This document shows positions 14,588-42,159 of a DNA stretch of 62,260 bases, piece by piece. The stretch's first letter is position 1, and every line of letters begins with the position of its first letter. Both the position numbers and the translations under genes were made by a program. The DNA comes from a virus (lineage: Duplodnaviria > Caudoviricetes). The DNA lies in the IMG/VR virus record IMGVR_UViG_3300048801_000006, positions 1 to 62,260 of that record, one strand, 5' to 3'. The notes beneath the pieces are model-generated. The model was not told where the DNA came from. It saw nothing but the letters and a program-made list of their open reading frames with translations, and did no database searches.

Positions 14588-14660
14588 CAATCGGCCCCGA
14601 TTGTGAAACCGGGGAATCTGATGTAAGTCTCAAACCGACCCGTCTGAAAGGACCTCGATC

Positions 14661-15134: not shown

Positions 15135-15140
15135 TCAGCC

Positions 15141-15428
15141 ATGCCGGCGCTGCGTATCAAACCCGGCGGAATCAACACCTACTTCGACCCCGTCTACGGC
15201 GAGGTCGAAGCTCACTCCTCGACATGCTCGCACTGTCAGACGATCACCGATTTCCCGAGCCTCAAGCGGATGTTCGACCACGTCGAGATGTGCCGTGGTT
15301 GCATGAAGCTGATCTGCCTCAGATGCGTCGGGAAGGGCTGCCGCCCGTATGAGAAGGAAGCGGAGCGGCAGGAGCGAGAGCATCACCTTCAATCTCAAAT
15401 CCACAAGCAGGCGTGGCGCTGCTATTGA
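15141..15428 (+). CDS. Cys-rich zinc-finger protein
   Basis: CSHC, CRGC, ICLRC, GC. Confidence 0.7.
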   Translation: MPALRIKPGGINTYFDPVYGEVEAHSSTCSHCQTITDFPSLKRMFDHVEMCRGCMKLICLRCVGKGCRPYEKEAERQEREHHLQSQIHKQAWRCY

Positions 15429-15480
15429 GCCCGTCGTAAAAAGTCGATAGGTTTCCCGAACTTTCAAACGGGAGACCCTG

Positions 15481-15987
15481 ATGGGCATTTGCTCTGACTG
15501 CCGCCTCTGGCTCACCAAGCGCGTGACCAAGTACGAGGACGGCTCCGTCGTCGTGAACTACGAGTCGCCGCCCGGTAAGGCGCGCTGCGAGGTTCTAGGA
15601 ATCGAGACCGGGACGCAGTTCGGCTGCAACTCCTTCGAGGAGGGGCATGACCACATCGAGATCATGGCGACCAAGACCGGATCGCCGTGGCATCACTCCC
15701 ATTATGAGGACTGCCCGGACTGCAAGGGGCGCGGCATCCCGCAGGAATCAGAGGGATCATGCGCTCGCTGCTGCGGGACCGGCCACGTCCTGTTCTACGA
15801 TGACGGCTACGTCGGTGAAGAGCGGACGCGCCGGCACCCCAACGAGGGAGAGATCGGACCGCCGCCGAAGCCGACCTGTCCCGGCTGCTCCCGCGACATC
15901 GAAACATCTTGGAAGGCTTGCCCGTTCTGCGGCGTCAAGCTCGACCAGCCCGCAGACCCAATCCGCACATCGGAGTTCCCGCTATGA
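15481..15987 (+). CDS. Cys-rich protein with DnaJ-type zinc finger and zinc ribbon
   Basis: CSDC; CPDCKGRG and CARCCGTG (CxxCxGxG); CPGC...CPFCG. Confidence 0.7.
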   Translation: MGICSDCRLWLTKRVTKYEDGSVVVNYESPPGKARCEVLGIETGTQFGCNSFEEGHDHIEIMATKTGSPWHHSHYEDCPDCKGRGIPQESEGSCARCCGTGHVLFYDDGYVGEERTRRHPNEGEIGPPPKPTCPGCSRDIETSWKACPFCGVKLDQPADPIRTSEFPL

Positions 15988-18380: not shown

Positions 18381-18708
18381 CAGCGTGTTCGGCAGCCGGG
18401 TCTTTGCGGCTCTCATTCAGTTCTGCACGACCGTGGTGCCGAGTGAGACGATCACTTCCACCACGGTCCAGCTCCACGTAGCTCGCAAGAACTACGCGGC
18501 GCAGGTCCTGAACAACCCGAATCAGTACAAGCCGCTGTTCATCAACGCGGTCTCCTCGAACTCTATCGTCGCTAATGAGGCGACGGCGGCCGGGACGCTC
18601 GCCGGCATGACCGGCCAGCAGATCGCTACGGCGGCTCTGCTCTGCCTAGACACCGACATCAACAACGCGGTAGCGGCAGCGTTCAACGCGTTCATCTCCG
18701 GCATCTGA
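18337..18708 (+). CDS. hypothetical protein, possible fibre-associated protein or chaperone
   Basis: GGAG RBS; Ala-rich helical ORF directly before the Gly-rich protein. Confidence 0.65.
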   Translation: MATANLNDMAILATDSVFGSRVFAALIQFCTTVVPSETITSTTVQLHVARKNYAAQVLNNPNQYKPLFINAVSSNSIVANEATAAGTLAGMTGQQIATAALLCLDTDINNAVAAAFNAFISGI

Positions 18709-18751
18709 TTCGGCCTGACGCGGACTTAGCCGAACCGCCGGAGCTGCGCCG

Positions 18752-21706: not shown

Positions 21707-21707
21707 G

Positions 21708-22040
21708 ATGAGTCTAGCCGGATCGACCCAAGTTCTCGTGCGCGGCGCGACCATTCAGTTCGCGACGACCTTCTATGACGTCAACGGGGTGGTCCTGCAG
21801 CCGGACAACGCGACGGTGAACATCCTCCCGGCGCAGGCGACCACGCCGATCTCCGTCTCCATGACGCCTCCGAGCGGCGGCGGGGTCCAGTGGACGGCGA
21901 TGTGGGATACCCGCAACATCCCGGCTCCGCAGACGGTCTATTGGTCGATTCACACCGGGATCGGCGATCCGGTCCCCGTGACGGCCGAAGATGGTCAGTT
22001 CACGCTCTCCGCCAACCCGGCCAACCTCGCGAGCTTCTGA
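21708..22040 (+). CDS. small Ig-like structural protein
   Basis: Beta-strand pattern; translationally coupled on both sides. Confidence 0.6.
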   Translation: MSLAGSTQVLVRGATIQFATTFYDVNGVVLQPDNATVNILPAQATTPISVSMTPPSGGGVQWTAMWDTRNIPAPQTVYWSIHTGIGDPVPVTAEDGQFTLSANPANLASF

Positions 22041-22423
22041 TGAACCTGCACCAGATCGCCGGCCCGCTGATCGGTGCGGTCAACCCGATGACCCCGGTCT
22101 CCGTGAAGGTCTCGACCGGATGGACGACGAACCCGGACGGGACGCGAGTCCCGACCTACGCGGACCCGGTCTCGATCTTGGCGCAGGTCCAGCCGATCTC
22201 ATTCCGCGACATCCAGCAGATGGACGGCCTGAACCTGAACGGCAGCAGGCGGGTGTTCTACCTGTCGGGATCGGTCGAGGGCCTCAACCGCCCGACGAAT
22301 CAGGGCGGCGATCTGATAACATTCCCTGACGGAACGGTGTGGCTGGTCGCGATGGTCCTTGAGGGATACAGCTTCAGCGCTGGCTGGTGCAAGGTAGCGG
22401 CTACGCTGCAAAACGGGAGTTGA
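22040..22423 (+). CDS. head closure / head-tail joining protein
   Basis: MNLH.IA...I.AVNP...G.RVP.Y...AQVQP...GGDLI.F....WLV..VLE....WCK. Confidence 0.8.
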   Translation: MNLHQIAGPLIGAVNPMTPVSVKVSTGWTTNPDGTRVPTYADPVSILAQVQPISFRDIQQMDGLNLNGSRRVFYLSGSVEGLNRPTNQGGDLITFPDGTVWLVAMVLEGYSFSAGWCKVAATLQNGS

Positions 22424-22425
22424 AC

Positions 22426-23025
22426 ATGAACTTGATCTTGAACTTGAAAAACTTGATTGGGTCCGCGCTCGCGGTCCTCATCGCTCTGTCGGCTCCGGCG
22501 CGCGCGCAGGGCGTCGATCCGCTGAACATGCTCACCCCGCTCGGCAACTGCCAGATCAGCGCGGCGCAGCTCGTCGGCTCGGTCGGCCTCTCGGTCTGCA
22601 CGCGGTCCGTGATCGCGTCCGCGACCGGCTCCGGTACCAACCTGACCGTGACGACGCTGACCTCCGGCATCATCAAGGTCGGCGACGTCGTCGTCACCGG
22701 CGTCGGCATCCCGGTCGGCACGACCATCGTCTCTCAGACCAGCGGGACGCCCGGCGGCACCGGGGTCTACGTGACCTCCGTAGCGACCACGATCTCCGTC
22801 GCGGCTGCGAGCTTCGGCGGTGTCCCTCCGGGCGCGACCTACGCGTTCCTGCAGGCGGAGACGGCGAACGTGCGCTGGCGTGATGACGGCTCCGCGCCGA
22901 CGGCGGCCATCGGCAACCTCGTGCTGTTCGGCTTGGCGGGCTTCATCTACTCCGGGACGCTGCCGCGCATCCAGTTCATCGCGGCCTCCGGCTCGCCGAT
23001 CCTCGACGTGGCGTTCTATCGATGA
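22426..23025 (+). CDS. signal-peptide-bearing putative structural protein with one shared beta-domain
   Basis: Hydrophobic N-terminus ending ARA|Q; C-terminal VRWRDDG.APTA..G; located inside the tail operon. Confidence 0.7.
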   Translation: MNLILNLKNLIGSALAVLIALSAPARAQGVDPLNMLTPLGNCQISAAQLVGSVGLSVCTRSVIASATGSGTNLTVTTLTSGIIKVGDVVVTGVGIPVGTTIVSQTSGTPGGTGVYVTSVATTISVAAASFGGVPPGATYAFLQAETANVRWRDDGSAPTAAIGNLVLFGLAGFIYSGTLPRIQFIAASGSPILDVAFYR

Positions 23026-23762
23026 CGATCTCGGCCTCACCGACGACGTCGAACCTGCTGGCGGCGATGAGGTCCTTTCTCGTCGCCGTCGTGCCGTCCG
23101 ACGTTCAGGTGATCGCCGGCCAACCGAACCGCGTGGCCGAACCGTCCGTCCCGCGCTTTATCGTGATGTCTCCTCCGCGCTTCGAGCGGATCGAGTTCAA
23201 CACTGACGCCTATCTGGACTCGAAGTTCACCGCGGCGATCTCCGGGACGGTCATGAACGTCTCTGCTTTCGATCCGACCCTGAATGGCCCGATAACGGTG
23301 GGCTCGATCATCTACGGGGCTGACCTAGCGGTTCCGACGACGGTCACGGCTCTCGGGACCGGGACCGGCGGAACGGGCTCCTACACGGTCTCGCCGTCGC
23401 AGAATATCGCCAGCCGGACCATGTCGGCCGGTCAGCAGACCGTGACGATGCCGGCGAAGGCGACGATCCAGCTCGACTTTCACTCCGCTGATCAGACCTC
23501 CGGAGACCTCGCGAACACGGTCTCCGCGCTGCTGCGTGATTCGTTCGGCGTCAACCTGTTCGCGAATCAGTCACCCGCCTACGCGGTCCCGCTCTATGCG
23601 GATGACGCGCGTGAGCTGCCTTTCTACAACGCGGAACAGCAGCTTGAGTGGCGTTGGGTGGTGGATGCTTTGCTGCAAGCGAACATCGTGGTAAGCGTTC
23701 CGCAGCAGTTCGCGGACTCGGTGGCGCTGACCGTGACCGACGTTCAGGTGGCCTACCCATGA
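23022..23762 (+). CDS. tail terminator/neck protein with one inserted beta-domain
   Basis: GQPNRV.EP, IQLDFH, LLRD, PLYADD, NAEQQ.E.RW; directly before the sheath. Confidence 0.78.
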   Translation: MTISASPTTSNLLAAMRSFLVAVVPSDVQVIAGQPNRVAEPSVPRFIVMSPPRFERIEFNTDAYLDSKFTAAISGTVMNVSAFDPTLNGPITVGSIIYGADLAVPTTVTALGTGTGGTGSYTVSPSQNIASRTMSAGQQTVTMPAKATIQLDFHSADQTSGDLANTVSALLRDSFGVNLFANQSPAYAVPLYADDARELPFYNAEQQLEWRWVVDALLQANIVVSVPQQFADSVALTVTDVQVAYP

Positions 23763-23775
23763 TAAGGGGCTCCAA

Positions 23776-25782
23776 ATGACGACCATCCCGGCCTCAATCT
23801 ACATCGCGGTCACTCCGAGCGTCCTCGGCGCGGGCGGTTCAGAACTGGACGCCAACGGCGTCGTCCTGACGACCAGCAACCGCGTCCCGCTCGGCGCGGT
23901 CTACTCATTCGCGACCGCCGCGTCTGTCGCCGCCTTCTTCGGAGCGGCCTCCGTCGAGGCGCGCATCGCGGGCGGCGCGAGCGGTCTCGGCTCCGGCTAC
24001 TTCGGCGGCTACGCCGGCTCGGACGTCCTGCCGGGCGCGCTCCTGTTCGCGCAGTTCGCTCCGAACTCGAGCCCCGGCTACCTGTGGGGCGGCAACGCTG
24101 GCGCGGCCCTGACGCTCGCTCAGTTGCAGGCGCTGACCGGCTCCTTGAACGTCACCATCGACGGCGTTGCGCACAACGCAGCCTCGATCAACCTGTCCGC
24201 GGCGGTGAGCTTCTCCAGCGCGGCCGCTCTGATCCAGACCGGCATCAACGGGGCGATCCCGTCGATCTCGACCGGCGCGGCATCGAGCATCGCCGCCTCG
24301 ACGTTCTCCGTCGCGGGCTACATCTCCGGCAACGTCCTGACCGTTACGTCCGTGACCTCCGGCACCGTGGTCAGCGGCGCGGCGATCTCAGGCACCGGCG
24401 TCTCGGCGCTGACGACCATCGGCAACCAGCTCTCCGGAATCACCGGCGGCATCGGCACCTACTCGGTCAACAACTATCAGTCGGCCGGATCGGCTGGCTC
24501 TCCCATCGCGGCCATCGGCGGCACCTACGGCACGCTGACGGTCGGCGGCGCGGTGACGGGCGTGTGGGCGGTCGGTCAGACCGTCTCCGGCGGCACGACC
24601 GCGGCAGGCACGATCATCACGCAGCTAGGCACGGGCGTGGGCGGCACCGGCACCTACTTCGTCAACCTGACGCAGACGGTAACGAGCGCGGCTCTCGCTG
24701 GCGCTGGCACCCCGGCGACAGTGGCCTACGACTCGACCTCCGGCGCGTTCGTCATCACGTCCGGCAACGTCGGCCCGGTCTCGACCATCGCCTTCGCGAC
24801 CGGCACGCTGGCGACCTCGCTCCTGCTGACCTCCGCGACCGGAGCGTTCTTGCAGCAGGGCGCGGTGGCGCAGACGCCGGCGGCCTGCCTCAACGCCGTG
24901 GTCGCGAACACGACCAATTGGGTCACGTACATGAACGCGTACGACCCTGACGCGGCGAACGGCAACTTGCAGAAGCTCGCCTTCGCCGGCTGGAAGAACG
25001 CCTACCCGAACCGGTACGCCTACATCTGCTGGGACACCGACCCGACGCCTCGGCTGTCGGTCCCGGCGATCTCCAGCCTCGGCTACCTGCTGCAGAACAA
25101 CGGCGACTCCGGCACCTGCCTGATCTCCTCGCTGAGCGACCTGAACCAAGCCGCGTTCATCACCGGCGCGGCGGCGGCAATCGACTTCGAGGAGGCGAAC
25201 GGGCGCATCACCTTCGCCTTCAAGAACCAAGTCGGCCTCGTGTCGGACGTCACGACCGCGACGGCGGCGGTCAACCTCGGCGGCAACCCGCAGCAGTCCG
25301 GCTCGGTCGGCAACGGCTACAACTATTTCGGTGCCGTCGCCGCGGCGAACCAGAACTTCCTGTGGTTCCAGCGCGGCTCCGTGACCGGCTCCTTCAAGTG
25401 GCTGGACAGCTACATCAACATGATCTGGTGGACAAACCTCCTCCAGAACACGCTCGCGAACTTCCTCGGCACCATCAAGTCGGTCCCGTTCAACACCATC
25501 GGCGCGGGCCTAATCGAGCAGGCGCTCGCCAGCCCGATCCAAGCGGCGCTGAACTTCGGCGCGGCGCAGCCGGGCACGATCTCCTCCTCGCAGATCGCCT
25601 CCGTCAACGCGGCGGCCGGTACGAACATCGCCACGACGCTTCAAGCGCAGGGCTACTATCTCCAAGTGCTCCAGCAGTCCTCGACCGTCCGCGTCAATCG
25701 CGGGCCGTGGGCGATCACGCTGTGGTATTTGGATCGCGGTGCGGTTCAATCGATCGCGCTCAACACCGTCACGGTCCAGTGA
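23776..25782 (+). CDS. tail sheath protein (DUF3383-like) with two inserted beta-domains
   Basis: TIPAS....VTPSVL.AGG, YFGGY, A.IDF...NGRITFAFK.Q.GL, NGYNYFG, WLDSYIN.IW, LWY.D.G.VQ.I. Confidence 0.92.
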   Translation: MTTIPASIYIAVTPSVLGAGGSELDANGVVLTTSNRVPLGAVYSFATAASVAAFFGAASVEARIAGGASGLGSGYFGGYAGSDVLPGALLFAQFAPNSSPGYLWGGNAGAALTLAQLQALTGSLNVTIDGVAHNAASINLSAAVSFSSAAALIQTGINGAIPSISTGAASSIAASTFSVAGYISGNVLTVTSVTSGTVVSGAAISGTGVSALTTIGNQLSGITGGIGTYSVNNYQSAGSAGSPIAAIGGTYGTLTVGGAVTGVWAVGQTVSGGTTAAGTIITQLGTGVGGTGTYFVNLTQTVTSAALAGAGTPATVAYDSTSGAFVITSGNVGPVSTIAFATGTLATSLLLTSATGAFLQQGAVAQTPAACLNAVVANTTNWVTYMNAYDPDAANGNLQKLAFAGWKNAYPNRYAYICWDTDPTPRLSVPAISSLGYLLQNNGDSGTCLISSLSDLNQAAFITGAAAAIDFEEANGRITFAFKNQVGLVSDVTTATAAVNLGGNPQQSGSVGNGYNYFGAVAAANQNFLWFQRGSVTGSFKWLDSYINMIWWTNLLQNTLANFLGTIKSVPFNTIGAGLIEQALASPIQAALNFGAAQPGTISSSQIASVNAAAGTNIATTLQAQGYYLQVLQQSSTVRVNRGPWAITLWYLDRGAVQSIALNTVTVQ

Positions 25783-31019: not shown

Positions 31020-31406
31020 ATGGCATCGACGCTCCTCCTTGATCAGCAGAGCTGGGACCTCGTTCTTAACGCGGCGGGGAACATCGCCGTCGCGGCCGAG
31101 CCCTACTCCTTGGCGCAGGACGCCGCGAGCGCGATCAAGACCTTCATCGGGGAGTGCTATTGGGATACCACCATCGGTATCCCGTACCTCACTCAGGTCT
31201 TCACCGGAAACCCGCCGTCGGTCTCCCTTCTCAAGCAGCTGTTCGTCGAGGCGGCGCTGACCGTCCCTGACGTGGCGGCTGCGGCGGTCTTCCTGATCGA
31301 GGCGGGCGGGCGCGCGCTCTCCGGTCAGGTCCAAGTCAAATCCGCATCGACGGGGACCGTTAGTGCGGCTACCTTCACGACGAGCAACCCGCAGGGGATA
31401 GGCTGA
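31020..31406 (+). CDS. baseplate wedge (gp25-like)
   Basis: LLLD...WDL.L...GNIA.A..PYS.AQD.ASAI.TF.GEC..DT..GIPY. Confidence 0.82.
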
Positions 31407-33271
31407 TGGCCGCCGGAACGACGAACGTCCCCTCGATCCAGTTCACCAGCGTCGGCTTCGTCGCGCCCTCCGGGCCTGCCGTGCTGGCCGGCGTCCAGCT
31501 CGACATCTCCGGGGCGTTCGGCAACGCGCTGAACTATGGCCTGACCACCCCGCAGGGACAGCTCGCGCAGTCTTGGGGCGCGATGATCGCGAACGCGAAC
31601 GCGACCTTCGTCTACTTCGCTCAGCAGATTGATCCGGCCTACGCCTCCGGACGCTTTCAGGACGCCATCGGCCGCATCTACTACATGACGCGGAACGCGG
31701 CGCAGCCGACCGCTCTCCAGATCACCTGCAACGGCGCGCAGGGCGTGGTGATCGCCATCGGGACCCTGATCCAAGACCCGGCTGGAAACCTCTATCAGTG
31801 CACGCAGGCCGGAACGATACCGGCTGGCGGCTCGATCACGCTGGCGTTCGCCGCGACCATTCCGGGCCCGACCGCGGTGCCGGCCACGGTCACGATCTAT
31901 CAGGCGCTGCCCGGCTGGGACTCGGCCTCCGTGACCTCCGGAGCGGTCGGAACGAACGTCGAAAGCCGCGCAGCCTTCGAGTCCCGCCGTCAGTCCTCCG
32001 TCGCCAGCAACAGCTTCGGAGCCATCGGCTCGATCATCGGGGCGGTCGCCGCGGTGCCGGGCGTCCTCGACTATTACGGCTACAGCAACAACACGGCCTC
32101 GCCCTTCATCATTAACGGCGTGACCATCCCGGCCTATTCGGTCTACGTCTGCGTGGCTGGTGGCGTCTCGACCGCCGTGGCGGCCGCGATCCTGTCGAAG
32201 AAAAGCCCGGGCGCGCCGATGTACGGCAACACCGCCGTGACGGTCTATGACACCAACCCGCTTTATTCCTCGCCGATCCCCTACGTGATCACCTATCAAA
32301 TCCCGACCGCCCTGCAGGTCCTGTTCAAGGTCACGCTGGTCAACTCCACGGCTGTTCCGAGCAGCGCCGCCACGCAGGTAGCGAGCGCGCTCGTGGCGGC
32401 GTTCGCCGGCGGTACCCTCACGGCCAGCTTCACCGGCTCGGTCTCCGGCACGACGCTGACGGTCTCGGCGGTGGCTTCCGGCACCATCGCCGTTGGTCAG
32501 GTCATCTCCGACCTGACGGGCAGCCTTCTCGCGAACACGATCATCACGGCGCTGGGGACCGGCACGGGCGGCATCGGGACCTACTCCGTCAGCATCAGCC
32601 AGAACGTCATCAGCGAGTCGATGACGTCAGCGACGACCTCGAACGTCGCGACCCCGCGCGCGCGGATCAACTCGCTGCTCTACGCGAACACCTACGTCCC
32701 GGCGATCTCCGCTCTCGGCTCATGGGCGCAGGTCGCGGCTATCTCCATCGGCTCCGCCAACCAGACGGACGCGGTCTGCCTCGGCAAGATCGTCGGCACG
32801 CTGCTGACGGTCCCGACCGGCGGCGTCGTCTCCGGCACCATAGCGGTCGGTGACTACATCACGGACGCCTACGGCCGGATCATCAACGGCACCTACGTCG
32901 TCTCGTTCGGCACCGGCACCGGCGGCGTCGGCACGTACAACGTCAACAACACGCAGACCGTCTCCGGCGCGAGCTTCACGGGCGCAGGCTCCGGAACGAA
33001 CCTGACGGCCTCCGCCGTGACCGGCACCATCGGGATCGGTGACACGGTCGCCGGCACCGGCATCGGCGCGGGCGTGACCATCCTCAGTCAGACCTCCGGC
33101 ACGGCCGGCGGCGCGGGCGTCTACGTCACGTCCGCCACGACGACCGCCAGCGGCACGATCACGGCGAACGAGACGATCTCCTTCGCGCAGGCCAACCACA
33201 CCAACGTGCAGGTCAACGCCAACCAGATCCCGCAGCTCAGCGCGGCGAACATCGTAGTGGTGACGACGTGA
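31406..33271 (+). CDS. baseplate J-like protein with three inserted beta-domains
   Basis: [45 protein letters not shown]....GNT. Confidence 0.9.
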
Positions 33272-33939
33272 CGGTCGCGCAGGTCCCATATCCGCGCTAC
33301 GCGGCCGGAGCTTCTCCGGGGCAGAACAGCATCGGTCAGTTTCAGATCGGCATCTCGCCCATCGGGACGATCTCGCCGTTCGACCCGTTCTCCACGATTA
33401 TGTCTCAGTACGCCGACTCGCCGATCCTGCTCGGTCTGATCACGTCCTTCAACGCGGCCATGGATCAGACGCAAAACATCGAGACGCTCTACGACATGCT
33501 TTGGAACATCGCCTCCGCGACCGGCTACGGGCTGGACGTGTGGGGGCGAATCGTCGGCGTCAGCCGCGCGCTCTCCTTCCCCGGAGGCACGCCATACCTC
33601 GGCTTCAACGAGCCCGGCGGCTGGACCGGCTTCGGGCAGGGCATCCTGTTCTCCGGCGGCGGCACGACGACGAACTACAACCTGTCGGACTCGGACTATC
33701 GCCGGCTGATCATGGCGAAGGCGGCTGGCAACATATCGAGCGGCTCGATCCCGGCGATCAACGCGATCCTGCTGGCGCTTTTCCCGCTGCGCGGCAACTG
33801 CTACGTCGTGGACGGTCTCAACATGAGCCTGACCTACACCTTTCAGTTTCCGCTCTCGATCATCGAGCAGGCGATCATCGTGCAGACCGGCGTCTTGCCC
33901 AATCCGTGCGGCGTGGTAATTAATATCTCTCAGCTCTGA
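33268..33939 (+). CDS. baseplate protein (DUF2612-like)
   Basis: [42 protein letters not shown]. Confidence 0.88.
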
Positions 33940-33956: not shown

Positions 33957-35087
33957 ATGAAGCGGGTTCTGTCGCTCCTCTTGGTAGCCGCCCTCGCCAT
34001 CCCCGGCCTCGCCTACGCGCTGACGGCTGCGTCCGTGCCGCCGAAGTTCGGCATCCCGTGGGCCAACGGAGCGGGCGCGGCCTACGTCCGCTCGATCCCG
34101 TCCAGCTCGCAGATCGGTATTCAGAACTGCGCGGCCTCGCTGCCGGACGGCTTCCCGCCCCTGACGTTCGTCCCCGCGGCCGGCGGCGGCTGTCCTCCGT
34201 TCGGTCAGGACTTCAACGGCATCCTGCGCCAGCTCTCTCAGTGGAATCAGTGGCAGGCGGCAGGCGGTCCGGTCTTCTTCGACTCGGCGTTCTCGACGGC
34301 CATCGGCGGCTACCCGAACGGAGCGGTGCTGAACTCGACGATCACGCCCGGCACGACGTGGATGTCGACCATCGACAACAACACGAACAACCCGGACGGA
34401 GCCACGCCGACCGGATGGATTCAGGAGCCCGGTCAAATCCCCATCGGGACCCCGGTTCAGTCGCTCTCTACGACCATCCCGACCGGCTACATCTCCGCCA
34501 ACGGCCTGACCATCGGTGACGGCTCGTCGAACGCGACGAACCGCGCGGCCGCTGACACGCAGTTCCTGTTCACCTTCGTCTGGAACAACTGCCCGGTCGC
34601 TCAGTGCCCGATCTACACCAGCCTCGGCTCGGGCTCGACCAAGACGACCGCCGCGGCTGACTTCTCCGCGCACAAGCAGCTCGCCGTCTGGAACATGAAC
34701 GGTGCCGGCCTGATGGGCGCGGACAACCAGAACGGCACGACCTCGACGAACTTGAGCTCAGTCCCGGTCGTCATCGGCAGCCGTACCGCTCCGGGCTCGA
34801 TCCTCGGTGAGAACCTGCACACGCTGGTCTCGGCTGAAAACGGTCAGCACAACCACGCCATCACGGAGCCGAACGGTGGCCTCGGTCATAACCACAGTTA
34901 CAACTTGGCGATCAACTCCGGCGGCACCGCCGGCGGCGGCGGCCTCTCTCCGTTCTACAACTATTCGGGAACGACGACCGGCAACACCGTCACCGGCATC
35001 ACGATCAACAATAGCCCGGTCTCGGCCACGACTCCGCACAACACCGTCGCGCGCAGCCTCATCGTTTACTGGAACCTGAAACTATGA
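33957..35087 (+). CDS. tail fibre protein with an N-terminal signal peptide
   Basis: Baseplate-attachment motif ASLPDGFPPLT...GG.PP.GQDFNGIL...AIGGYP.GA; collar-like PTGYISANG.TIG; HxH knob motifs; preceded by MKRVLSLLLVAALAIPGLAYA. Confidence 0.85.
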   Translation: MKRVLSLLLVAALAIPGLAYALTAASVPPKFGIPWANGAGAAYVRSIPSSSQIGIQNCAASLPDGFPPLTFVPAAGGGCPPFGQDFNGILRQLSQWNQWQAAGGPVFFDSAFSTAIGGYPNGAVLNSTITPGTTWMSTIDNNTNNPDGATPTGWIQEPGQIPIGTPVQSLSTTIPTGYISANGLTIGDGSSNATNRAAADTQFLFTFVWNNCPVAQCPIYTSLGSGSTKTTAAADFSAHKQLAVWNMNGAGLMGADNQNGTTSTNLSSVPVVIGSRTAPGSILGENLHTLVSAENGQHNHAITEPNGGLGHNHSYNLAINSGGTAGGGGLSPFYNYSGTTTGNTVTGITINNSPVSATTPHNTVARSLIVYWNLKL

Positions 35088-35749
35088 CCCGCCGCCTCCT
35101 CGCAGCTCTCCTCCTCCTGATCGCCGGGCTCAGCCCGGTCTTCGCTCAGTCGCAACCCGGCTGGACCTACGGCTACGTGCCGACGACCGCGCAGTGGAAC
35201 ACGATCTTCGCGAGCAAGCAGGACTATGCCGGCGCGCCGCCTTGCCTGAGCACCGGCTGTACGATGACGGGTGAGCTGGCGACGGCGGCATCGACGACCG
35301 CGACCTCCGGCTTGAACGTCGGCATCGGCGTCAACCCAACCTCTCCTCAGACGGGTGACGTGTGGCTGACGGCGACCGGAGGATGGTTCCGGATCGGCAG
35401 CGTGACCTACTCCGCCGCGCTCACCGCGCAGCCGGTCTTCTATCCGGCTGCACCGACCGTCGCGTCCGGCTTCTGCACCAGCCCGACCATCAGCGCCCCC
35501 AACGGGACGGCGGCGTTCACCTTGACCATCGGGACGGGCTGCGCGGGTGGCGTCGGCGTCCTGACCATGCCGACCACGGCGACCGGCTGGGTCTGTCACT
35601 TCAATGACCTGACGACCCCGGCGAACGTCCCGGTCCAGACCTCGAGCGGCGTCACGCAGGTCGGCATCACGAACTACGCGCGCAACACCGGCGCGACTCA
35701 GAACTTCACCAACAGCGACGTGATCAACGCGCAGTGCACGGCGTTCTGA
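35084..35749 (+). CDS. secondary fibre / receptor-binding-like protein with a signal peptide
   Basis: MTRRLLAALLLLIAGLSPVFA|Q; W..G.VPT..QWN..FASKQD, G.TMTG.L, P.SP..GD.W fibre motifs; 6 Cys. Confidence 0.7.
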   Translation: MTRRLLAALLLLIAGLSPVFAQSQPGWTYGYVPTTAQWNTIFASKQDYAGAPPCLSTGCTMTGELATAASTTATSGLNVGIGVNPTSPQTGDVWLTATGGWFRIGSVTYSAALTAQPVFYPAAPTVASGFCTSPTISAPNGTAAFTLTIGTGCAGGVGVLTMPTTATGWVCHFNDLTTPANVPVQTSSGVTQVGITNYARNTGATQNFTNSDVINAQCTAF

Positions 35750-35750
35750 C

Positions 35751-36581
35751 ATGCAGCACCCCTTCACGATCCTCAAGCCGGAATACACTTCGCTGCTGGC
35801 GGCGATGGTGGTTCGGCCGGACCGCGAGCATCTGGTTGATCAGGTCGCCACGCGGCTCCTGACGCACAAGACGCGCTATCAGGACGTGACGGACCGCAAC
35901 GGCGTCCCGGTCATCTTCATCGCGACCTCTTTCGAGCGCGAGGCTTCCAGCGACTTCACGAAGAACCCGGCGCAGGGCTGGCCGCTCGCGGGTCACTCCC
36001 GCTGGGTCCCGCACAACGGACCGTTCCGGACGTGGCTCGACGCGGCGGTCACCGCCTATCACCTGAACGGCCTCGACCGCGTCGGCGCGGGCAACTGGAC
36101 GTGGGAGCTGATCTGCTTCTACGGCGAGCTGTTCAACGGCATGGGCTATCGAGACTTTCACCGGATGCACTCCCCGTACCTGTGGGGCGGGACGAACATC
36201 CAGACCGTCGGCAAATACACGTCGGACGGAGAGTTCGACGCCGGCCACATGGACGGGCAGCTCGGGATCATCCCGGTCGCGCGCCGGATGGCCCAGCTCG
36301 ATCCGTCGCTGGCGCTGCCGGCGGCTGTTTACGTTCCGGCTCCTCCGGTAGCCTCCGGCCTGTCCGTGGCTGCCGAGCACCCGGAAGCGGACGCGAAATG
36401 GGTGCAAGCGACCCTCGGCTCCCTCGGCTACTCCGTCCACGTTGACGGCTCCTACGGGCGGGAGACGATGCGCGCGGTGGCGGACTTCCAGCGGGACTAC
36501 GCACTCGAAGTCGACGGCCTCGCCGGACCGAAGACGATCTCCGGTCTCAAGGAAGCTCTCGCGAACGTGGTGATAGCATGA
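35751..36581 (+). CDS. endolysin (lysozyme-like domain + peptidoglycan-binding domain)
   Basis: ERE.S, FNGMGY, SPYLWGGT, GKY.SDG; C-terminal VDG.YG.ET.RAV..FQ....L.VDG.AGPKT (PG_binding_1 pattern). Confidence 0.88.
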   Translation: MQHPFTILKPEYTSLLAAMVVRPDREHLVDQVATRLLTHKTRYQDVTDRNGVPVIFIATSFEREASSDFTKNPAQGWPLAGHSRWVPHNGPFRTWLDAAVTAYHLNGLDRVGAGNWTWELICFYGELFNGMGYRDFHRMHSPYLWGGTNIQTVGKYTSDGEFDAGHMDGQLGIIPVARRMAQLDPSLALPAAVYVPAPPVASGLSVAAEHPEADAKWVQATLGSLGYSVHVDGSYGRETMRAVADFQRDYALEVDGLAGPKTISGLKEALANVVIA

Positions 36582-36787
36582 TCACGAAGGCCAAGGTCCT
36601 GCAGGCGGTCGAGGACGCGTTCATCGAGCGGATCAAGACCGCCTATGACCTGATGGCGCAGCACGAGATCGTCGAGGATCACGACGAGGTCCAGAAGCAG
36701 TTCGAGCGGTCCATCGGCATCGCGGAGGACGCGCTCTCACGAGCCACCGTAGTTATCAACAGGATTTTCATCGAGCCGGGGGAATGA
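36578..36787 (+). CDS. hypothetical protein
   Basis: ATGA-type overlap with the endolysin stop. Confidence 0.55.
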   Translation: MITKAKVLQAVEDAFIERIKTAYDLMAQHEIVEDHDEVQKQFERSIGIAEDALSRATVVINRIFIEPGE

Positions 36788-37416
36788 TTATGGAACAAGC
36801 TGACAAGGTCCTCATCCGGATCGCGCTCGCTGCGGCGCTGATCATGCTCCTCCTGATGACCGTCCCGTCCTTCGCGCAGTTCGCGGAAGCGCAGCCCGGA
36901 GGTCCGGTCGCTATCGGTCAGCAGATGGCGCAGGTCCATCCCGGTACCGGTGGCGTTGCCATCGTTCAGGCTCCGGCGGTCGCGGCTCCGAGCGGCGGCG
37001 TCATCCAGCTCTCGGTCTTCGGCTGGCTCCAGCCCTACGTGGACTCACTGGTTCAGGCTCTCCTCGCGGCCGGGCTCGCTTGGATCGGCAAGTCGAAGTA
37101 CACGCAGTGGATGGATCAGTCGGCGCGGGATGCGCTCGGGACCTTCACGAAGAACGCCGCCTCCTCCCTGATCGCGGACGGCTTCGTCCACATGCAGGGC
37201 AAGACGGTCTCCGTTCCGAGCGCGGCTATCGCCACGGAGGTCTCTACCGCTATGGACCGCATCCCGGACGCCATGAAGCGGTTCGGCCTGACCCCGGGCG
37301 CGCTGACGCAGAAGATCATCGACGCGATCCCGCAGACGACCGCCGGCGCGGCGCTGATCGTCAATGCCCACGCGGCTGAACCCGCCACGCAGCTCCCGCC
37401 GACTGTCCCGGCATAA
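36784..37416 (+). CDS. membrane protein, possible holin
   Basis: N-terminal hydrophobic segment, second TM near LVQALLAAGLAWI; lies in the lysis region. Confidence 0.55.
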   Translation: MIMEQADKVLIRIALAAALIMLLLMTVPSFAQFAEAQPGGPVAIGQQMAQVHPGTGGVAIVQAPAVAAPSGGVIQLSVFGWLQPYVDSLVQALLAAGLAWIGKSKYTQWMDQSARDALGTFTKNAASSLIADGFVHMQGKTVSVPSAAIATEVSTAMDRIPDAMKRFGLTPGALTQKIIDAIPQTTAGAALIVNAHAAEPATQLPPTVPA

Positions 37417-37531
37417 GGCGGTTCATCGGCGGCGTCAGCATCGGTCTTTGCATCGCCTATCTGGTCGCCACCGTCGCGCTCAGTCACCCAGCGGTGCTTC
37501 ACAGCTTCAAGGTTTCTATGGGAGAGGTCAG

Positions 37532-38011
37532 ATGACGATCAGGCTCCGCTTCGTTCAAGGCTCCGGGTTCAGCTCCGGGCTGATCGAGTACCGGGAGGGC
37601 GTCTGCATGCCCTTCACTCCGTCTCACGTTGAATGCGTGGACCCCGTCAACGGCCACCAGATCGGCCAGCACATGGGCGGGGGAATGCAAAGCCGCGAGC
37701 CCGGCTATGACGTTCCGTTCAACGCCGAGCTTTTCCTCGACCTTCCGGCGACCGACCAGCAGACCGCTGATTTCTACGCGGGCGCGCGGGCGGCTATCGG
37801 GGAACCCTATGATTGGAAGTCGATCCTCGGCTTCGCGCTCCCGGGGCATTTTCACGAAAAATACAACGCGATCTGCTCCGCGAAGATGACGCAGCTCCTC
37901 CGCAAGGTGGACTGGTTCCCGAGCAAGCTCCCGCTGTGCGTCCCGTTCCATTGCATCGACCCGCGTGACCTCCTCCTGATCCTGTCCGCGATTATCGAGG
38001 TCCGGCACTGA
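37532..38011 (+). CDS. permuted papain-like (NlpC/P60, YiiX-like) enzyme
   Basis: SHVE (His) before GEPYDW and ICS (Cys), the permuted catalytic order. Confidence 0.72.
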   Translation: MTIRLRFVQGSGFSSGLIEYREGVCMPFTPSHVECVDPVNGHQIGQHMGGGMQSREPGYDVPFNAELFLDLPATDQQTADFYAGARAAIGEPYDWKSILGFALPGHFHEKYNAICSAKMTQLLRKVDWFPSKLPLCVPFHCIDPRDLLLILSAIIEVRH

Positions 38012-38262
38012 TGAAGTCGCTCCGCATCCGCTGCATGGCGTATGACGCCAAGGGCGAGCGGGAGCCCATGACCTCGATCCAAGTCTGCTTCGAGGACGAC
38101 GAGACGGACCATGAGCGGGCCAAGCGAAAGGTTCTGGTTCACGTCTTCCGGGAGCTGGACCGCTACGGGCTCAGTGAGGCGCTCAACAGCATCGGCATCC
38201 TCGATCAGCATGGCCGGCGCGCGAAAGAGGAAGCGGACCGGGTCTTGAAGGACTGGCAATGA
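38011..38262 (+). CDS. hypothetical protein
   Basis: Coupled to the previous stop. Confidence 0.55.
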   Translation: MKSLRIRCMAYDAKGEREPMTSIQVCFEDDETDHERAKRKVLVHVFRELDRYGLSEALNSIGILDQHGRRAKEEADRVLKDWQ

Positions 38263-38320
38263 CCAAGGTTCAGAAAAGGCGGGCGGCTTCATCGAAGGGA
38301 TGGCGGACCCGCAAGAAAAT

Positions 38321-38345
38321 GGCGGAAGCCCGAAAGGCCTCCGCC
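38321..38345. terminator. GC hairpin between convergent genes, probable terminator
   Basis: GGCGGAAGCC-cgaaa-GGCCTCCGCC. Confidence 0.5.
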
Positions 38346-38363
38346 GCTTCCCGTGAAATAAAA

Positions 38364-38615
38364 TCAATGCTCGACGACGTAGGTCTCACTCAACTCACAC
38401 GAGTCACACTCGAAAGTCTGAAGATCGTAGCCGGTTGAAGCAGGTTCAATACAAGACAGCTTCATCAGGCTTCCGCAGGTCAGGCAGGTCATGCGGGGCA
38501 TGTCCTGCGCTTGAAAGATCAGGTTCGGAAACAAGTTTAACGCGCTCATCGGTTCAACCTCCCAGTTGTGATGCGAATCCGCGTTAGGCCTCTTTTCCCT
38601 GTGCCGTATGGTCAA
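38364..38615 (-). CDS. small zinc-ribbon protein (moron-like; start uncertain)
   Basis: CLTCG..M...IEP......TFEC.SC; opposite strand, AT-richer surroundings. Confidence 0.6.
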   Translation of the reverse strand: MTIRHREKRPNADSHHNWEVEPMSALNLFPNLIFQAQDMPRMTCLTCGSLMKLSCIEPASTGYDLQTFECDSCELSETYVVEH

Positions 38616-38752
38616 TAGAGCACAGTGCTGTCGATTATTTGAGATGAGTGGTGCAAAAACGGCACACGGGTCGATAATTTTCTACGGGTTCCCCGACTCT
38701 CCCCGCGCGGGCGTAGGCTGGCCGCCTTTCTTCAAACCAAAGGGGATCAATC

Positions 38753-39448
38753 ATGAAGCGCGTTATTCTTGCCGCCGTAGCGGCTCTCATTGCTCTACCG
38801 GCTCTCGCCGCAGACCTGACCACCAAGGCGCAGGGCAACTTCCTGTCAGCCGGTTATCCGACCACGAAGTGCGGCTTCTACTATGGCGCGGGGACCGGCG
38901 GCTCGGCCGGCGCGGTCAACGGTGCCGCCGTCGGCACGCAGATCGTTCAGGGCCAGCTCGACGCCATCCTCGGCTACGCCTGCCCGTTCGCAACCAACGC
39001 GTTCTGGTTCGCGGAGGGATCGATCGGATTCAACAACATCAACGGCAGCGTCAACGGTCTCGCGCTCTCCGGTCCGCTGGTGATGATCCAGCGCGCGGGC
39101 GCGGGCTCTCCGATCAATCAGCTCTTCAACCCGTTCGGGTCGAACCTGTCCCTGCCGGCGCTCCCGCTCCTCCCGACCGGCGTCACTCCGGGCGTGGCGA
39201 CCGGCTACCTGTTCGCCGGCATGGTCGAGCAGGACATCGCCGCTCAGGTCCTCAACGGTCACACCCACCAGTGGGTCGTGGCTCCGATGATCGGCTTCGG
39301 CATGCTGACGCGGCTGAACGGAAACGCCGCGGTTGTCGATACGTGGGCGGGCTGGCAGATGAACTCTCAGTCCTTCTGCCCCGGTGGCGGCAACTCCTGC
39401 GCCAAGCTCGGCAACGCGGCTCGAGTTGGAGTGTCGTTCAAGTACTGA
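38753..39448 (+). CDS. outer-membrane beta-barrel protein, Omp25/RopB-like
   Basis: Signal peptide ending ALA|ADL..KA, GFY.G..GG, terminal RVGVSFKY aromatic beta-signal. Confidence 0.75.
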   Translation: MKRVILAAVAALIALPALAADLTTKAQGNFLSAGYPTTKCGFYYGAGTGGSAGAVNGAAVGTQIVQGQLDAILGYACPFATNAFWFAEGSIGFNNINGSVNGLALSGPLVMIQRAGAGSPINQLFNPFGSNLSLPALPLLPTGVTPGVATGYLFAGMVEQDIAAQVLNGHTHQWVVAPMIGFGMLTRLNGNAAVVDTWAGWQMNSQSFCPGGGNSCAKLGNAARVGVSFKY

Positions 39449-39548
39449 TGTTGGCGGTTTTTGCATCACCGGCCCGGTTCGATTAAATGTCGAGCCGGGC
39501 CTTTCTACGAATCGTGGTAAGGGTTCCATCAGGAAAGGTTGCGAAGTG

Positions 39549-39854
39549 ATGGCAGATGGACCCGACTTCTGGATTCAGATCGGTATCAAAATGCCGGACC
39601 TCGTGGCGGGGTTCGCCGGTGGCGTCGTCAACGCGTTCGTGTTCAAGCGAGCGGACCCGTTCTCGATCATCGGTTCCATGATCGTCGGCGCGCTGACGGC
39701 CAACTATTTGTCGGAATCTGTCGGGCACTATATCGGAACGACTGCCGGAGCATCGGCGTTCATCGTGGGGCTGGCTGGGATGGCCATCTGCCAAGGCGTC
39801 GTCGAAGCGGCGAAGTCGTGGAGGCCATTCCAAGACAGGACGAATCAGCCATGA
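39549..39854 (+). CDS. holin-like membrane protein
   Basis: Three small Gly-rich TM segments, charged C-terminus. Confidence 0.65.
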   Translation: MADGPDFWIQIGIKMPDLVAGFAGGVVNAFVFKRADPFSIIGSMIVGALTANYLSESVGHYIGTTAGASAFIVGLAGMAICQGVVEAAKSWRPFQDRTNQP

Positions 39855-40258
39855 CCAGCATCGAACGGTTATTCGACTGGATCAACCTTGACATGTTCCA
39901 CACATTCCTCGCGGTGCTGGGCGTCGTTGAGACGATCTACGTGATGCAGCTCTCGAACTTCTATGTCGCGAAGGAGGAGCACCATCCTCCGGAGTGGGTG
40001 ATGGAGCTGCAACGGTTCGGGCTCGCCATGCTGGCCTTGGCGTTCTGCTGGTCCCTGATCTACGCGGAGAACCGCCACTGGACGCCGTGGCCTCCGGACG
40101 TGATGATCATCGCGGTCGTCGATGGCATCCTCGCCGTCCGCGTCGGGGTGATCTGCCGGAACATCCGGTCGGTCGGCCTGCGCTGGTGGTCCTTCAACCT
40201 GATGATCGAGCACGAGCTGCTCAAGTCCGCACACCAGAAGAAGATGCACAGCAAATGA
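39851..40258 (+). CDS. 3-TM membrane protein
   Basis: YVMQL...LALAFCWSL.YA...W.PD; coupled to the holin-like gene. Confidence 0.65.
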   Translation: MTSIERLFDWINLDMFHTFLAVLGVVETIYVMQLSNFYVAKEEHHPPEWVMELQRFGLAMLALAFCWSLIYAENRHWTPWPPDVMIIAVVDGILAVRVGVICRNIRSVGLRWWSFNLMIEHELLKSAHQKKMHSK

Positions 40259-40563
40259 TCGACGTCCTCCACGCCGCGATCTCGATCTCCGGGGCGATCC
40301 TCGCCGCCTACGTCATGCAGCTGACGACGCACCTGAACGAGCGCGAGTATGATCCGGTCTACCTGCGCTGGATACGCCGGCTCGCCATGACGCTCCTCGC
40401 GCTCTCGATGCTCTGGTCGCTCTACGCGCAGGAGACCACGGAAGTGTGGCTGCCCGACTTCTGCATGGACAGCATGATCGTCATCATCCTGATCCTCCAA
40501 GCGGTCGCCATCCATCGGCGGCTCCTTCGGGATGGCGACCGGTGGCCGTTCTGCCGGACCTGA
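40255..40563 (+). CDS. 3-TM membrane protein, paralog of the previous gene
   Basis: YVMQL...LALSMLWSLYA...WLPD. Confidence 0.65.
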   Translation: MIDVLHAAISISGAILAAYVMQLTTHLNEREYDPVYLRWIRRLAMTLLALSMLWSLYAQETTEVWLPDFCMDSMIVIILILQAVAIHRRLLRDGDRWPFCRT

Positions 40564-40639
40564 TTCGCTGAGAAGGTCAATCCTGTTTCAGCTCTCCCCG
40601 CTGAGGTAGAACGTCCCTCCGAAAAACAGGGGGGACCCC

Positions 40640-41296
40640 ATGAAACCGATCATCTTGGCGGCAGCCGCGGTGCTGCTCCTGACCTCCGGCTCCGCCGAGG
40701 CTCGCCGGCTCCAGCCGGGCGGCCTCCACCCGGATTGCAACGTCCTGTGGCCGTGCGTGGCTCCGGAACGCCCGGTTCGAGCCCGGAAGGCGGTTTCCCA
40801 CCCTTCGGGGCACGTCCGGAAGGCCCCGCGCCGGGCTAGCGCGCCTCGTCGGCAGGTTTCCCGGTCTCCGGAGCTATCTCCGCCCGCGCGCGCGCCGGAG
40901 AGGCTCCTACCGCCCTCCGGCAACGCCCCAGCCATCCCCGGACCCGGCAGGGCGGTCGCCGCGCTCGTGGGGATCGTCCCGGGGCTGGCGTCTAAGGTGG
41001 CGGAGATCGTCACGACGTGCGGCTCGATGATCCTTTCCAGCCATCGGCACACCTACGTGGCGGGGACGCACCGGATCAGCCTCCACGCCTCCGGGCGGGC
41101 GGTGGACGTCGCCGGAAACCCGTCCTGCATCTATTCGATGCTGCACGGCTGGCCGGGAGGGTATTCGGTGGACTACGGAGCCGTTCGGCACGTTCACATC
41201 AGCTTGGGCGGTCGGGAGGACGGCACCCGGTTCGTGCACGGCGGTCGCCATCATGGCCGTGGACACCGCCATCGGCATTCTCGACATCATCGATGA
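40640..41296 (+). CDS. secreted peptidase M15-like zinc D,D-peptidase
   Basis: Signal peptide ending AEA; SLHASGRAVD and HVHIS zinc motifs; His/Arg-rich tail. Confidence 0.78.
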   Translation: MKPIILAAAAVLLLTSGSAEARRLQPGGLHPDCNVLWPCVAPERPVRARKAVSHPSGHVRKAPRRASAPRRQVSRSPELSPPARAPERLLPPSGNAPAIPGPGRAVAALVGIVPGLASKVAEIVTTCGSMILSSHRHTYVAGTHRISLHASGRAVDVAGNPSCIYSMLHGWPGGYSVDYGAVRHVHISLGGREDGTRFVHGGRHHGRGHRHRHSRHHR

Positions 41297-41371
41297 ATCA
41301 GGTATGAAGGATTCAGGCGGTTGACGGTCTTAGCCCCGGTGGCTGCCTCGTTCCTCCCAGAACGCGACGGG

Positions 41372-41415
41372 TCGAGCCGCCCCGCTAAACGCCCCCAAGC
41401 AAGAGGGCGGCTCGA
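41372..41415. terminator. inverted repeat at the convergence of late and early arms
   Basis: TCGAGCCGCCC ...22 nt... GGGCGGCTCGA (11-bp arms). Confidence 0.55.
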
Positions 41416-41421
41416 TCTCGC

Positions 41422-42159
41422 TTAACGCCCGCCTCCGAATGGAAACTGTCGCACCAGCAGGTCCTCGGGGATCGGCGTGCGGCCCGACATCTGCTTCATG
41501 AAGAACGGCACCGCTTCTTCCTCGCACTCGTGCTTGATCGCGTAGAACCATTGCGGCTTGGCCCAGCGGTGGCCTTGCCCAGTCTCGCCTCCGGCGATCA
41601 GCCAGTCGGGCATCACCTTGTGGCCGGTGATCGTCAGCGGACCTATCGCCGGCTCATAGCTGATGAAGCGGACGCGCGCGGGGACCTTCTGCAGCATCGG
41701 CCAGCGGCGATCAAAGGCGGCCTGATCCTCGCACGTCGTCCCGATCCAGACGTTCGGCGGGATCACGGCCGGAGCCATCAGCCCGATGTTCTCCGGACGC
41801 TTCGTCAGCAGCAGCCAGTCGATCTGCGGCGTGGCGTTGATCATGGTCCAGAGGTCGCCGCGCGCACCGTCCGGAGCCTTGTTGTCGAACACGTCCGCGA
41901 GCGAAGCGCAGAACACGCGCTGCCGATGACCGTGCTGAGCTTGGAACGCGGAGAAGTGCCGGTTCCAGATGATCGGCTCGCGCCAGTTCGCCGCGCTGGT
42001 TCGCCTGCGCTCGCCATGCGGCCCCCACTCGACGCGGTGCAGCCGCTTGTCCATCAGCGTTTCCGCATAACAATGATCGCATCCGGCGGAGACCTTCTGG
42101 CATCCGATCCACGGATTGAACGTCGAGTCCGTCCACGCGATTTCTGTTTTCTCGCCCAC
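41422..42159 (-). CDS. DUF5131 (gp37/gp68) family radical-SAM-like protein
   Basis: I.WTD.TFNPW.GC.KVS.GC.HCYAE, RVFCASLADVF, LLTKRPEN, RFIS.EP, GGETG, FFMKQ. Confidence 0.92.
   Translation of the reverse strand: MGEKTEIAWTDSTFNPWIGCQKVSAGCDHCYAETLMDKRLHRVEWGPHGERRRTSAANWREPIIWNRHFSAFQAQHGHRQRVFCASLADVFDNKAPDGARGDLWTMINATPQIDWLLLTKRPENIGLMAPAVIPPNVWIGTTCEDQAAFDRRWPMLQKVPARVRFISYEPAIGPLTITGHKVMPDWLIAGGETGQGHRWAKPQWFYAIKHECEEEAVPFFMKQMSGRTPIPEDLLVRQFPFGGGR

Follow-up and report, generated by a model that had tools for sequence, protein, structure and literature searches.

The window analysed here, a linear stretch of 62,260 bases, is the whole of the IMG/VR virus record IMGVR_UViG_3300048801_000006 (CheckV completeness, 86%); it belongs to an uncultured, soil-type phage and encodes a contractile-tailed (myovirus-type) particle, with a complete structural module in this 62-kb record. 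Three of its open reading frames (ORFs), all on the + strand, start with Sec-type leaders: that of the tail fibre (33957-35087), that of the next gene, which encodes a 221-residue protein taken here to be a short second fibre (35084-35749), and that of a gene in the neck module (22426-23025). In our judgement, the evidence leans towards all three being genuine appendages of the virion to which cleavable Sec signal peptides have been added. Their export and their oxidative folding in the periplasm are strongly suggested by sequence comparisons, and a joining of the fibres to the particle at lysis is, we infer, plausible. A first-pass annotation of this DNA had reported leaders on the same three ORFs, along with four, six, and two cysteines, respectively; the N-termini proved to be as it described them, and the cysteine totals were confirmed position by position.

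The fibre gene encodes 376 residues. Its ATG lies 17 nt 3' of the stop codon of the gene for a DUF2612 baseplate protein and is preceded, at a distance of 8 nt, by AGGGA. The leader (33957..34019, +; 21 codons) has an n-region containing K2 and R3, a hydrophobic core (LSLLLVAALAI), and AYA at positions -3 to -1, with a predicted signal peptidase I cut before L22. The mature fibre (34020..35087, +), which starts with LTAASVPPKF, comprises a docking domain (residues 22 to about 160), a central domain, and a His-rich C-terminal part, a division based on PHROG profiles, homologues, AlphaFold2 (AF2) modelling, and cysteine statistics. The leaders resemble coding sequence, since the G+C content at third codon positions (GC3) in the three leaders (0.86-0.90, with 0.90 for that of the fibre) is on a par with that in the mature parts (0.88-0.94). 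Of the four cysteines in the fibre, C58 (34128-34130) and C79 (34191-34193) lie, as the earlier annotation had it, in the attachment motifs QNCAAS and GGCPP, which are better conserved than any other motif of the docking domain; the other two, C212 and C217 (34590-34607), are in the central domain.

The leader is an addition to a canonical fibre. This is indicated by the PHROG tail-fibre profiles (phrog_8763, 8.1e-29; phrog_12796, 8.6e-28; phrog_38625, 3.4e-19), whose matches start at residue 27 of the fibre, corresponding to profile positions 6-7, and by the fibres of Burkholderia phage Bcep43 (gp31; Bcep781-type) and Acetobacter phage phiAO1 (PhiAO1_340), which start at the domain itself. 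The N-terminal domains of these two fibres are 42-44% identical to that of the present fibre over about 130 residues and have the same docking motif, GFPP...GG.PP.G.D.NG, and their genes stand in the same order, Baseplate_J, DUF2612, and fibre. However, both have their Met directly at the domain and lack a leader as well as Cys at either of the motif positions, whereas the fibre described here combines a leader of 21 residues with two Cys pairs. As far as the cultured relatives examined are concerned, it is true that the fibres of tailed phages normally lack leaders. A second, independent set, read from DNA, comprises 132 loci in GTDB genomes and IMG/VR (40 with leader-bearing and 92 with leaderless fibres); here, DUF2612 is directly upstream of the fibre in 39/40 leader-bearing and 74/92 leaderless loci; in the window, this fibre is the only homologue of canonical fibres, and it occupies the canonical slot. 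By sequence and position, it is a member of the Bcep781-type family; because of the leader ahead of the conserved domain, it is filed as a variant rather than as an ordinary member. The His-rich C-terminus presumably resembles collar domains; a Pfam search (E <= 0.01) gave no family, including the tail collar domain PF07484, for either the fibre or the 221-residue protein. A Foldseek comparison of the fibre model with the PDB gave nothing at E <= 0.001, the weak matches being to N-terminal anchors of Acinetobacter phage tailspikes and to the Pa193 fibre.

The homologues of the fibre were collected as the best 120 of 1398 from a word-indexed search and the best 150 representatives of 6371 from an exhaustive search, which gave a set of 267, 264 of which have the N-terminal domain. 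Leaders were called using our own rule, based on the presence of at least 18 residues before the position of P28 and of a 10-residue window with a Kyte-Doolittle mean of at least 2.0, with charge and A-x-A also weighed; this divides the 264 into 143 leader-bearing and 121 leaderless homologues. The leaders have a median length of 20 residues, and K or R is found among the first 8 residues in 141/143. Position -1 is small in all of them (A126/G14/S3, 143/143), and position -3 is A in 122/143. At position +1, L (69/143), M (49/143), and I (10/143) are the residues found most often, and Cys is never found. In 112 of the 121 leaderless homologues, the same column is the initiator Met, so a cut by signal peptidase I would recreate the canonical fibre N-terminus; the +1 Met itself looks like a remnant left when the N-terminus was extended past the old start. 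The mature N-termini proposed earlier, LTAASV for the fibre and QSQPGW for the 221-residue protein, agree with the cleavage point derived from the alignment. A K or R just after the cleavage site is unfavourable for Sec export, and one is present at +2 to +6 in 5/143 leader-bearing compared with 21/119 leaderless homologues (Fisher p 1.4e-4, kinship ignored).

A control scan of the same loci, using a liberal rule that accepts any leader-like in-frame start, found such starts in 0/106 DUF2612 and 0/123 Baseplate_J homologues; the background pass rate of this rule is 7.3% (205/2823) of the + strand ORFs of at least 100 residues in these loci. When the leaderless fibre homologues were read from DNA, their upstream frame was either closed within a few codons or not leader-like. 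These comparisons point to more than a chance resemblance and support the idea that the leaders are real and conserved, are of the Sec/signal-peptidase-I type, and stand directly before the docking domain. Two other kinds of leader were considered and rejected, namely a Tat leader, because the RR present in the leader of the 221-residue protein is not conserved in the leaders of that family and the cores are very hydrophobic, and a lipoprotein leader, because there is neither a lipobox nor a Cys at +1. Related leader-bearing fibre genes occur in cultured, non-pathogenic strains, namely Bradyrhizobium oropedii Pear76 (L004), in which both fibres have leaders, Rhizobium freirei PRF 81 (L007), and Labrys sp. 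La1. A 5-kb contig (L003, 2958-4148) of a metagenome-assembled genome labelled Terracidiphilus (Acidobacteriota) also encodes a leader-bearing fibre, with 49% identity to the present one; all of the other named carriers are Pseudomonadota, and this case reflects either a wide host range or a mis-binned contig.

The connection between leaders and paired cysteines that the first-pass annotation had put forward extends to the homologues. Both C58 and C79 are Cys in 131/143 leader-bearing but only 2/121 leaderless fibres (P0040 and P0132), and P0132, although leaderless by the rule, has a visibly truncated leader. Just one of the two positions is Cys in 1/264, a leaderless protein. In the DNA-based set, the 40 leader-bearing fibres include 28 with both cysteines, 4 with the second Cys where the pattern for the first motif fails, and 8 with neither, whereas C58 or C79 is present in 0/92 leaderless fibres. 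Among the proteins that share the central domain, C212 and C217 are found together in 100/102 leader-bearing versus 3/48 leaderless proteins, and C217 alone is kept in 37/48 of the latter. Beyond residue 155, the number of cysteines is even and non-zero in 101/129 proteins that have both leader and pair, and odd in 72/119 leaderless ones. These figures support a near confinement of the Cys pairs to the leader-bearing relatives. The 12 leader-bearing fibres without the C58/C79 pair (e.g., P0052, P0111, P0133, and P0171) have Gly or Val at these positions, and C212/C217 is present in 3/3 of those that share the central domain; these 12 fibres may represent an intermediate stage at which the leader came first and the docking-motif disulfide later.

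The gene that follows the fibre gene begins with an ATG that overlaps the fibre stop codon (ATGA). Its leader (35084..35146, +; 21 codons) ends VFA|Q, and the mature protein (35147..35749, +), which starts with QSQPGW, contains the N-terminal motif PGWTYGYVPTTAQWNTIFASKQD, a CxxxxC pair (C54/C59), and a C-terminal beta-sandwich domain with the pairs C131/C153 and C171/C218, the six cysteines thus being at 54, 59, 131, 153, 171, and 218. Its close relatives are few (6 in the search made), and all of the complete ones have leader-like N-termini; in the C-terminal domain, C171 and C218 are invariant (7/7), and C131/C153 are present together in 5/7 and absent together in 2/7. The motif at the mature N-terminus (..P.W.YG.VPT..QWN..F..KQD) marks a second fibre family, found in the fetched loci as 52 distinct proteins of 75-1645 residues. 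A leader ending in A-x-A before Q/G-S/T-S-P is present in 40 of the 52, and the remaining 12 lack one by the rule and start at the motif itself, although one of these 12 (L005) has a leader on inspection. In the leader-bearing members, Peptidase_S74 intramolecular-chaperone domains are found along with PHROGs of tail spikes or tail fibres, which marks these members as fibre proteins. Their cysteine count is even in 31/39 cases, and two further pair sites, one with C...C flanking the motif (6 cases) and one of the form PPC....GC after it (4 cases), occur in leader-bearing members only. When the two fibre genes are considered together, 19 loci have a leader on both, 22 on fibre 2 alone, and 12 on neither, and there is no locus (0) with a leader on fibre 1 alone.

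The structure of the 221-residue protein was poorly predicted by AF2, with a mean predicted local distance difference test (pLDDT) score of 51.9; VIA-align of this model gave only generic beta-sandwich matches (Z <= 6.2), and Atlas led to clusters of viral hypothetical proteins and, weakly, to Gp53-like_C. We assign the protein no specific fold. A tblastn search with this protein gave no match in cultured phages, and one with the fibre 2 of a Rhizobium prophage (L007) gave central-domain matches in 11 cultured-phage records, none of them N-terminal; these tblastn searches thus found no cultured phage with a leader-bearing member.

The third gene (22426-23025, +) starts 2 nt past the stop codon of the collar gene, lies between the collar and tail terminator genes, and encodes 199 residues. 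Its leader (22426..22506, +; 27 codons) ends ARA|Q, the next residues being QG, and the mature protein (22507..23025, +) has a conserved pair, C42/C58, and a small domain that is also found in Baseplate_J, the sheath, and the terminator. By the rule, 59/69 relatives have both the leader and the conserved Cys pair; the other 10 consist of 2 that are below the threshold but leader-like, 4 fragments, and 4 with leaders and a variant motif, and no full-length leaderless relative was seen among the 69. Besides this gene, the small domain (phrog_21413 / phrog_38233) is found N-terminally in the tail terminator, inserted into the sheath, and in three C-terminal copies in Baseplate_J, and other phages have it as a fusion to capsid cement proteins (PF23982/PF22758).

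The complex of three copies of fibre residues 22-160 with one DUF2612 protein was modelled from our own alignments and scored 0.81 (0.81, 0.81, and 0.79 in the separate runs) against 0.11 for the best control, where the mark used is reached by 58/80 solved complexes and 2/110 mismatched pairs in a calibration that differs in layout from the present 3+1 arrangement. Contacts agree to at least 94% across the three runs, and the pLDDT of the partner is at least 59. A pass of this kind shows likeness rather than binding, and it may reflect solved complexes of related baseplates and fibres. The modelled interface brings fibre residues 58, 66, 70-74, 77-84, and 86 together with residues 106-134 of DUF2612, which would make the Cys-bearing motif of the fibre the socket. 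At the interface positions, the leader-bearing homologues are 86% and the leaderless ones 72% identical to the present fibre; over residues 100-155, the figures are 58% and 56%, respectively. Since the fibre has a leader and DUF2612 has none in 106/106 homologues, the two putative partners are predicted to be on opposite sides of the inner membrane until lysis.

The route of assembly that we envisage would run as follows. The three proteins would be translated late and exported through Sec, and signal peptidase I would cut them at AYA|L (fibre), VFA|Q (221-residue protein), and ARA|Q (neck protein), the cut in the fibre being where leaderless fibres start. The Cys pairs would then be oxidised in the periplasm, where one of them would staple the docking motif itself. 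Meanwhile, the head, the tail, and the baseplate, including the leaderless DUF2612 and Baseplate_J proteins, would be built in the cytoplasm. The two sets would meet only after the holin had breached the inner membrane or the cell had lysed, and the docking of the fibre trimer onto the DUF2612 loop would be the last assembly step. The lack of a leader on the endolysin fits a holin-dependent breach of the inner membrane.

A broader version of this idea is that phages widespread in soil bacteria finish their virions outside the cytoplasm, with fibres and a neck appendage that are Sec-exported, cut, stapled by disulfides, and docked after the holin has opened the inner membrane, perhaps while the outer membrane still encloses the contents; on this view, the order in which the leaders appear, with fibre 2 always ahead of fibre 1, would correspond to an outside-in conversion of the appendages to folding in the periplasm. 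We regard this as a serious possibility, if one still a little short of an even chance. A crude lipobox scan of the lysis region (35700-41500) revealed no o-spanin-like candidate. ORFs with a lipobox were found within 7 kb downstream of the fibre in 5/27 leader-bearing and 28/60 leaderless loci (L055-L134), a comparison from which no conclusion is drawn because, in the leader-bearing loci, the length of the fibre-2 genes places the lysis genes beyond this distance. If the deficit were real, a delayed rupture of the outer membrane could provide a mixing chamber for fibres and particles.

Several observations weigh against the proposal that these are exported virion proteins. Joining after lysis would dilute the partners, and no mechanism that would retain them is apparent; moreover, a record that is 86% complete may have room for a further, leaderless fibre gene. 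The AF2 monomer has a confidently modelled central domain, but residues 40-90 are poorly predicted (pLDDT 40-66). The absence of both C58 and C79 from 12/143 leader-bearing fibres means that this disulfide is not required for an exported fibre, and a Met at +1 in 49/143 makes a second, cytoplasmic isoform possible in those cases, the fibre described here having CTG (Leu). Kinship also limits what the counts can say. With FastTree, a tree of the docking domain (264 rows, with the two Cys columns removed) requires at least 21 changes for the leader and 16 for the pair, and it contains only 3-4 independent leader/Cys contrasts on supported branches; all of those that differ do so in the same direction, and they are too few for a test. 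A quick IQ-TREE run on 148 rows from the representative search gives 12 and 7 changes and 1 supported pair. Furthermore, in an approximately unbiased (AU) test, a single clade of all leader-bearing fibres is not rejected (p 0.339). The trees and the AU test suggest that the leader and each Cys pair were perhaps gained once or a few times in the fibre family, and they do not uphold a repeated, correlated evolution of leader and Cys within it. A stronger argument than the counts is that the same pattern is seen at different sites and in unrelated families.

What else might these proteins be? One possibility is that they are exported and oxidised and yet are not parts of the virion: they would mask or destroy receptors in the envelope of the infected or lysogenic cell, and so block other phages or the adsorption of progeny to debris, while the virion relied on other receptor-binding parts. 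Leaders and Cys pairs are equally expected here, and exported proteins encoded in or beside the tail-fibre region are known: T5 Llp, which blocks the receptor, Cor, and lambda Lom and Bor all have leaders and are non-structural. Other candidates for surface parts exist in the record, namely the extra C-terminal domains of Baseplate_J and a 984-residue repeat protein with a weak 'tail fiber assembly' match, and the record is incomplete. However, Llp, Cor, Lom, and Bor are small lipoproteins or outer-membrane proteins unrelated to fibres, whereas the present proteins have no lipobox, are homologous to fibres, and have kept the docking domain. The fibre is, moreover, the sole homologue of canonical fibres in the record and stands in the canonical slot, and the genes form part of the late structural operon, the start of the 221-residue gene being translationally coupled. 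In the leader-bearing forms, conservation is higher in the docking motif than elsewhere in the domain, the model places the mature domain on the DUF2612 loop, and the cut recreates the canonical N-terminus, all of which would be needless in a decoy. We therefore consider this explanation unlikely, but it is the one among the alternatives that deserves the most attention.

Another possibility is dual or incomplete targeting, in which an inefficient leader, late saturation of Sec, or initiation inside the gene at the former start would leave a cytoplasmic share of the fibre to build the virion, the exported share having a side function. The homologues with Met at +1 and those with a leader and no C58/C79 pair speak in its favour. 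On the other hand, the commonest +1 residue is L rather than M, and the only alternative start near the CTG codon of the present fibre, a GTG at V27, has no evident ribosome-binding site. The Cys pairs in the docking motif suggest, moreover, that it is the oxidised form that is competent to dock, and a single unpaired Cys is typical of the leaderless rather than of the leader-bearing forms. Dual targeting is thus quite improbable in our view. The strong hydrophobic core and the length of the fibre leader (21 residues) could also fit a leader that is cut poorly or not at all and acts as an anchor in the inner membrane, from which the tethered fibres were released, or picked up, at lysis. Small residues at positions -3 and -1 mark signal peptidase I sites rather than signal anchors, and the residues conserved at these two positions in the homologues, at a fixed distance from the conserved domain, constitute such a signature; an anchor is accordingly very unlikely. 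Finally, translation might start downstream, so that the leader-like stretch would never be made. High-GC DNA does open long frames upstream of true starts, and the PHROG profiles match only the part of the fibre from residue 27. Nevertheless, the frame is bounded by the upstream stop codon 17 nt before the ATG, AGGGA is suitably close to this ATG, and the leader has the GC3 of coding sequence; the n-, h-, and c-region features and the A-x-A have been kept in 143 diverged homologues, such starts occur in 0/229 control genes from the same loci, and the upstream frame of leaderless homologues offers nothing comparable. An internal start, which the first-pass annotation had named as the finding that would overturn its interpretation, is unlikely on the grounds of the conserved leader with its A-x-A, its coding GC3, and the adjoining upstream gene, and the artefact as a whole seems to us hardly credible.

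The genes around the three leader-bearing ones are those of a contractile-tailed phage. On the head side, the order is portal, MuF-like protein, protease, and major head protein, followed by the neck and collar. The collar protein (21890-22423) is E217 gp28-like; the tail terminator (23022-23762) and the DUF3383 sheath (23776-25782) lie beyond the neck-module gene, and the sheath is followed by the tube, the chaperone, the tape measure, the hub, and then a gp25-like wedge. Downstream, the order is Baseplate_J, DUF2612, fibre, the 221-residue gene, and endolysin. The Baseplate_J-like wedge protein (31406..33271, +; Pfam/PHROG match and control scan) has no leader and ends with three copies of the small decoration domain. 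The DUF2612 baseplate protein (33268..33939, +; Pfam 1.2e-50), also leaderless, is the partner onto which, in the complex model, the N-terminal domain of the fibre is predicted to dock, at residues 106-134 of DUF2612. The endolysin (35751..36581, +; Pfam/PHROG) has a PG_binding_1 domain and no leader seen at its N-terminus, and the lysis region comes next. No member of the DSBA family was found in the record.

Other features of the record lie outside the fibre region. A 1603-residue ORF (1110-5921), an unusually large portal gene, combines a portal domain (residues 93-595) with weak stretches of nudix-like and head-protease-like sequence. A cassette (13988-22040) between the neck and collar genes includes an 823-residue protein (phrog_24975) and the 984-residue repeat protein (18752-21706), whose 'tail fiber assembly' match is to a PHROG. 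Lastly, a 231-residue gene 3' of the lysis genes (38753-39448), whose product begins with a classical leader (ALA|ADL at its end) and terminates in an aromatic residue, gave no Pfam or PHROG match and may be an outer-membrane-protein moron.

Among known systems, the nearest functional case of a leader-bearing, disulfide-bonded receptor-binding virion protein is the g3p of the filamentous Ff phages, which has a cleavable Sec leader and acquires its disulfides in the periplasm. Ff particles are, however, assembled at the envelope and extruded through it, so that everything is extracytoplasmic, whereas the head, tail, and baseplate of the present phage would be cytoplasmic; there is also no sequence relation to g3p. 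The nearest precedent for fibres that join in the last step is T4, in which the long tail fibres are made on a separate line and added last, and in which fibreless particles and free fibres join on mixing; both lines are nevertheless cytoplasmic in T4, and its fibres have no leader. A search of full-text literature gave no description of leader-bearing tail fibres in tailed phages, and excerpts from PMC12633290, PMC13412088, PMC11924767, PMC3517404, and PMC3322345 contain nothing bearing on them.

The existence of cultured carriers makes the case directly testable. If the proposal of exported fibres is true, pipelines for gene calling and annotation would mislabel these proteins wherever they trim or distrust the leaders of structural proteins, and receptor-binding proteins of this sort would have to be expressed in the periplasm when produced recombinantly. 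The folding of the fibres would depend on the Sec system, the signal peptidase, and the Dsb proteins of the host, which would thus be new host factors for infection and possible routes to resistance. In textbook accounts, tailed phages are assembled entirely in the cytoplasm; should the fibres described here mature in the periplasm, the last step of assembly would be split across the membrane and coupled to lysis.

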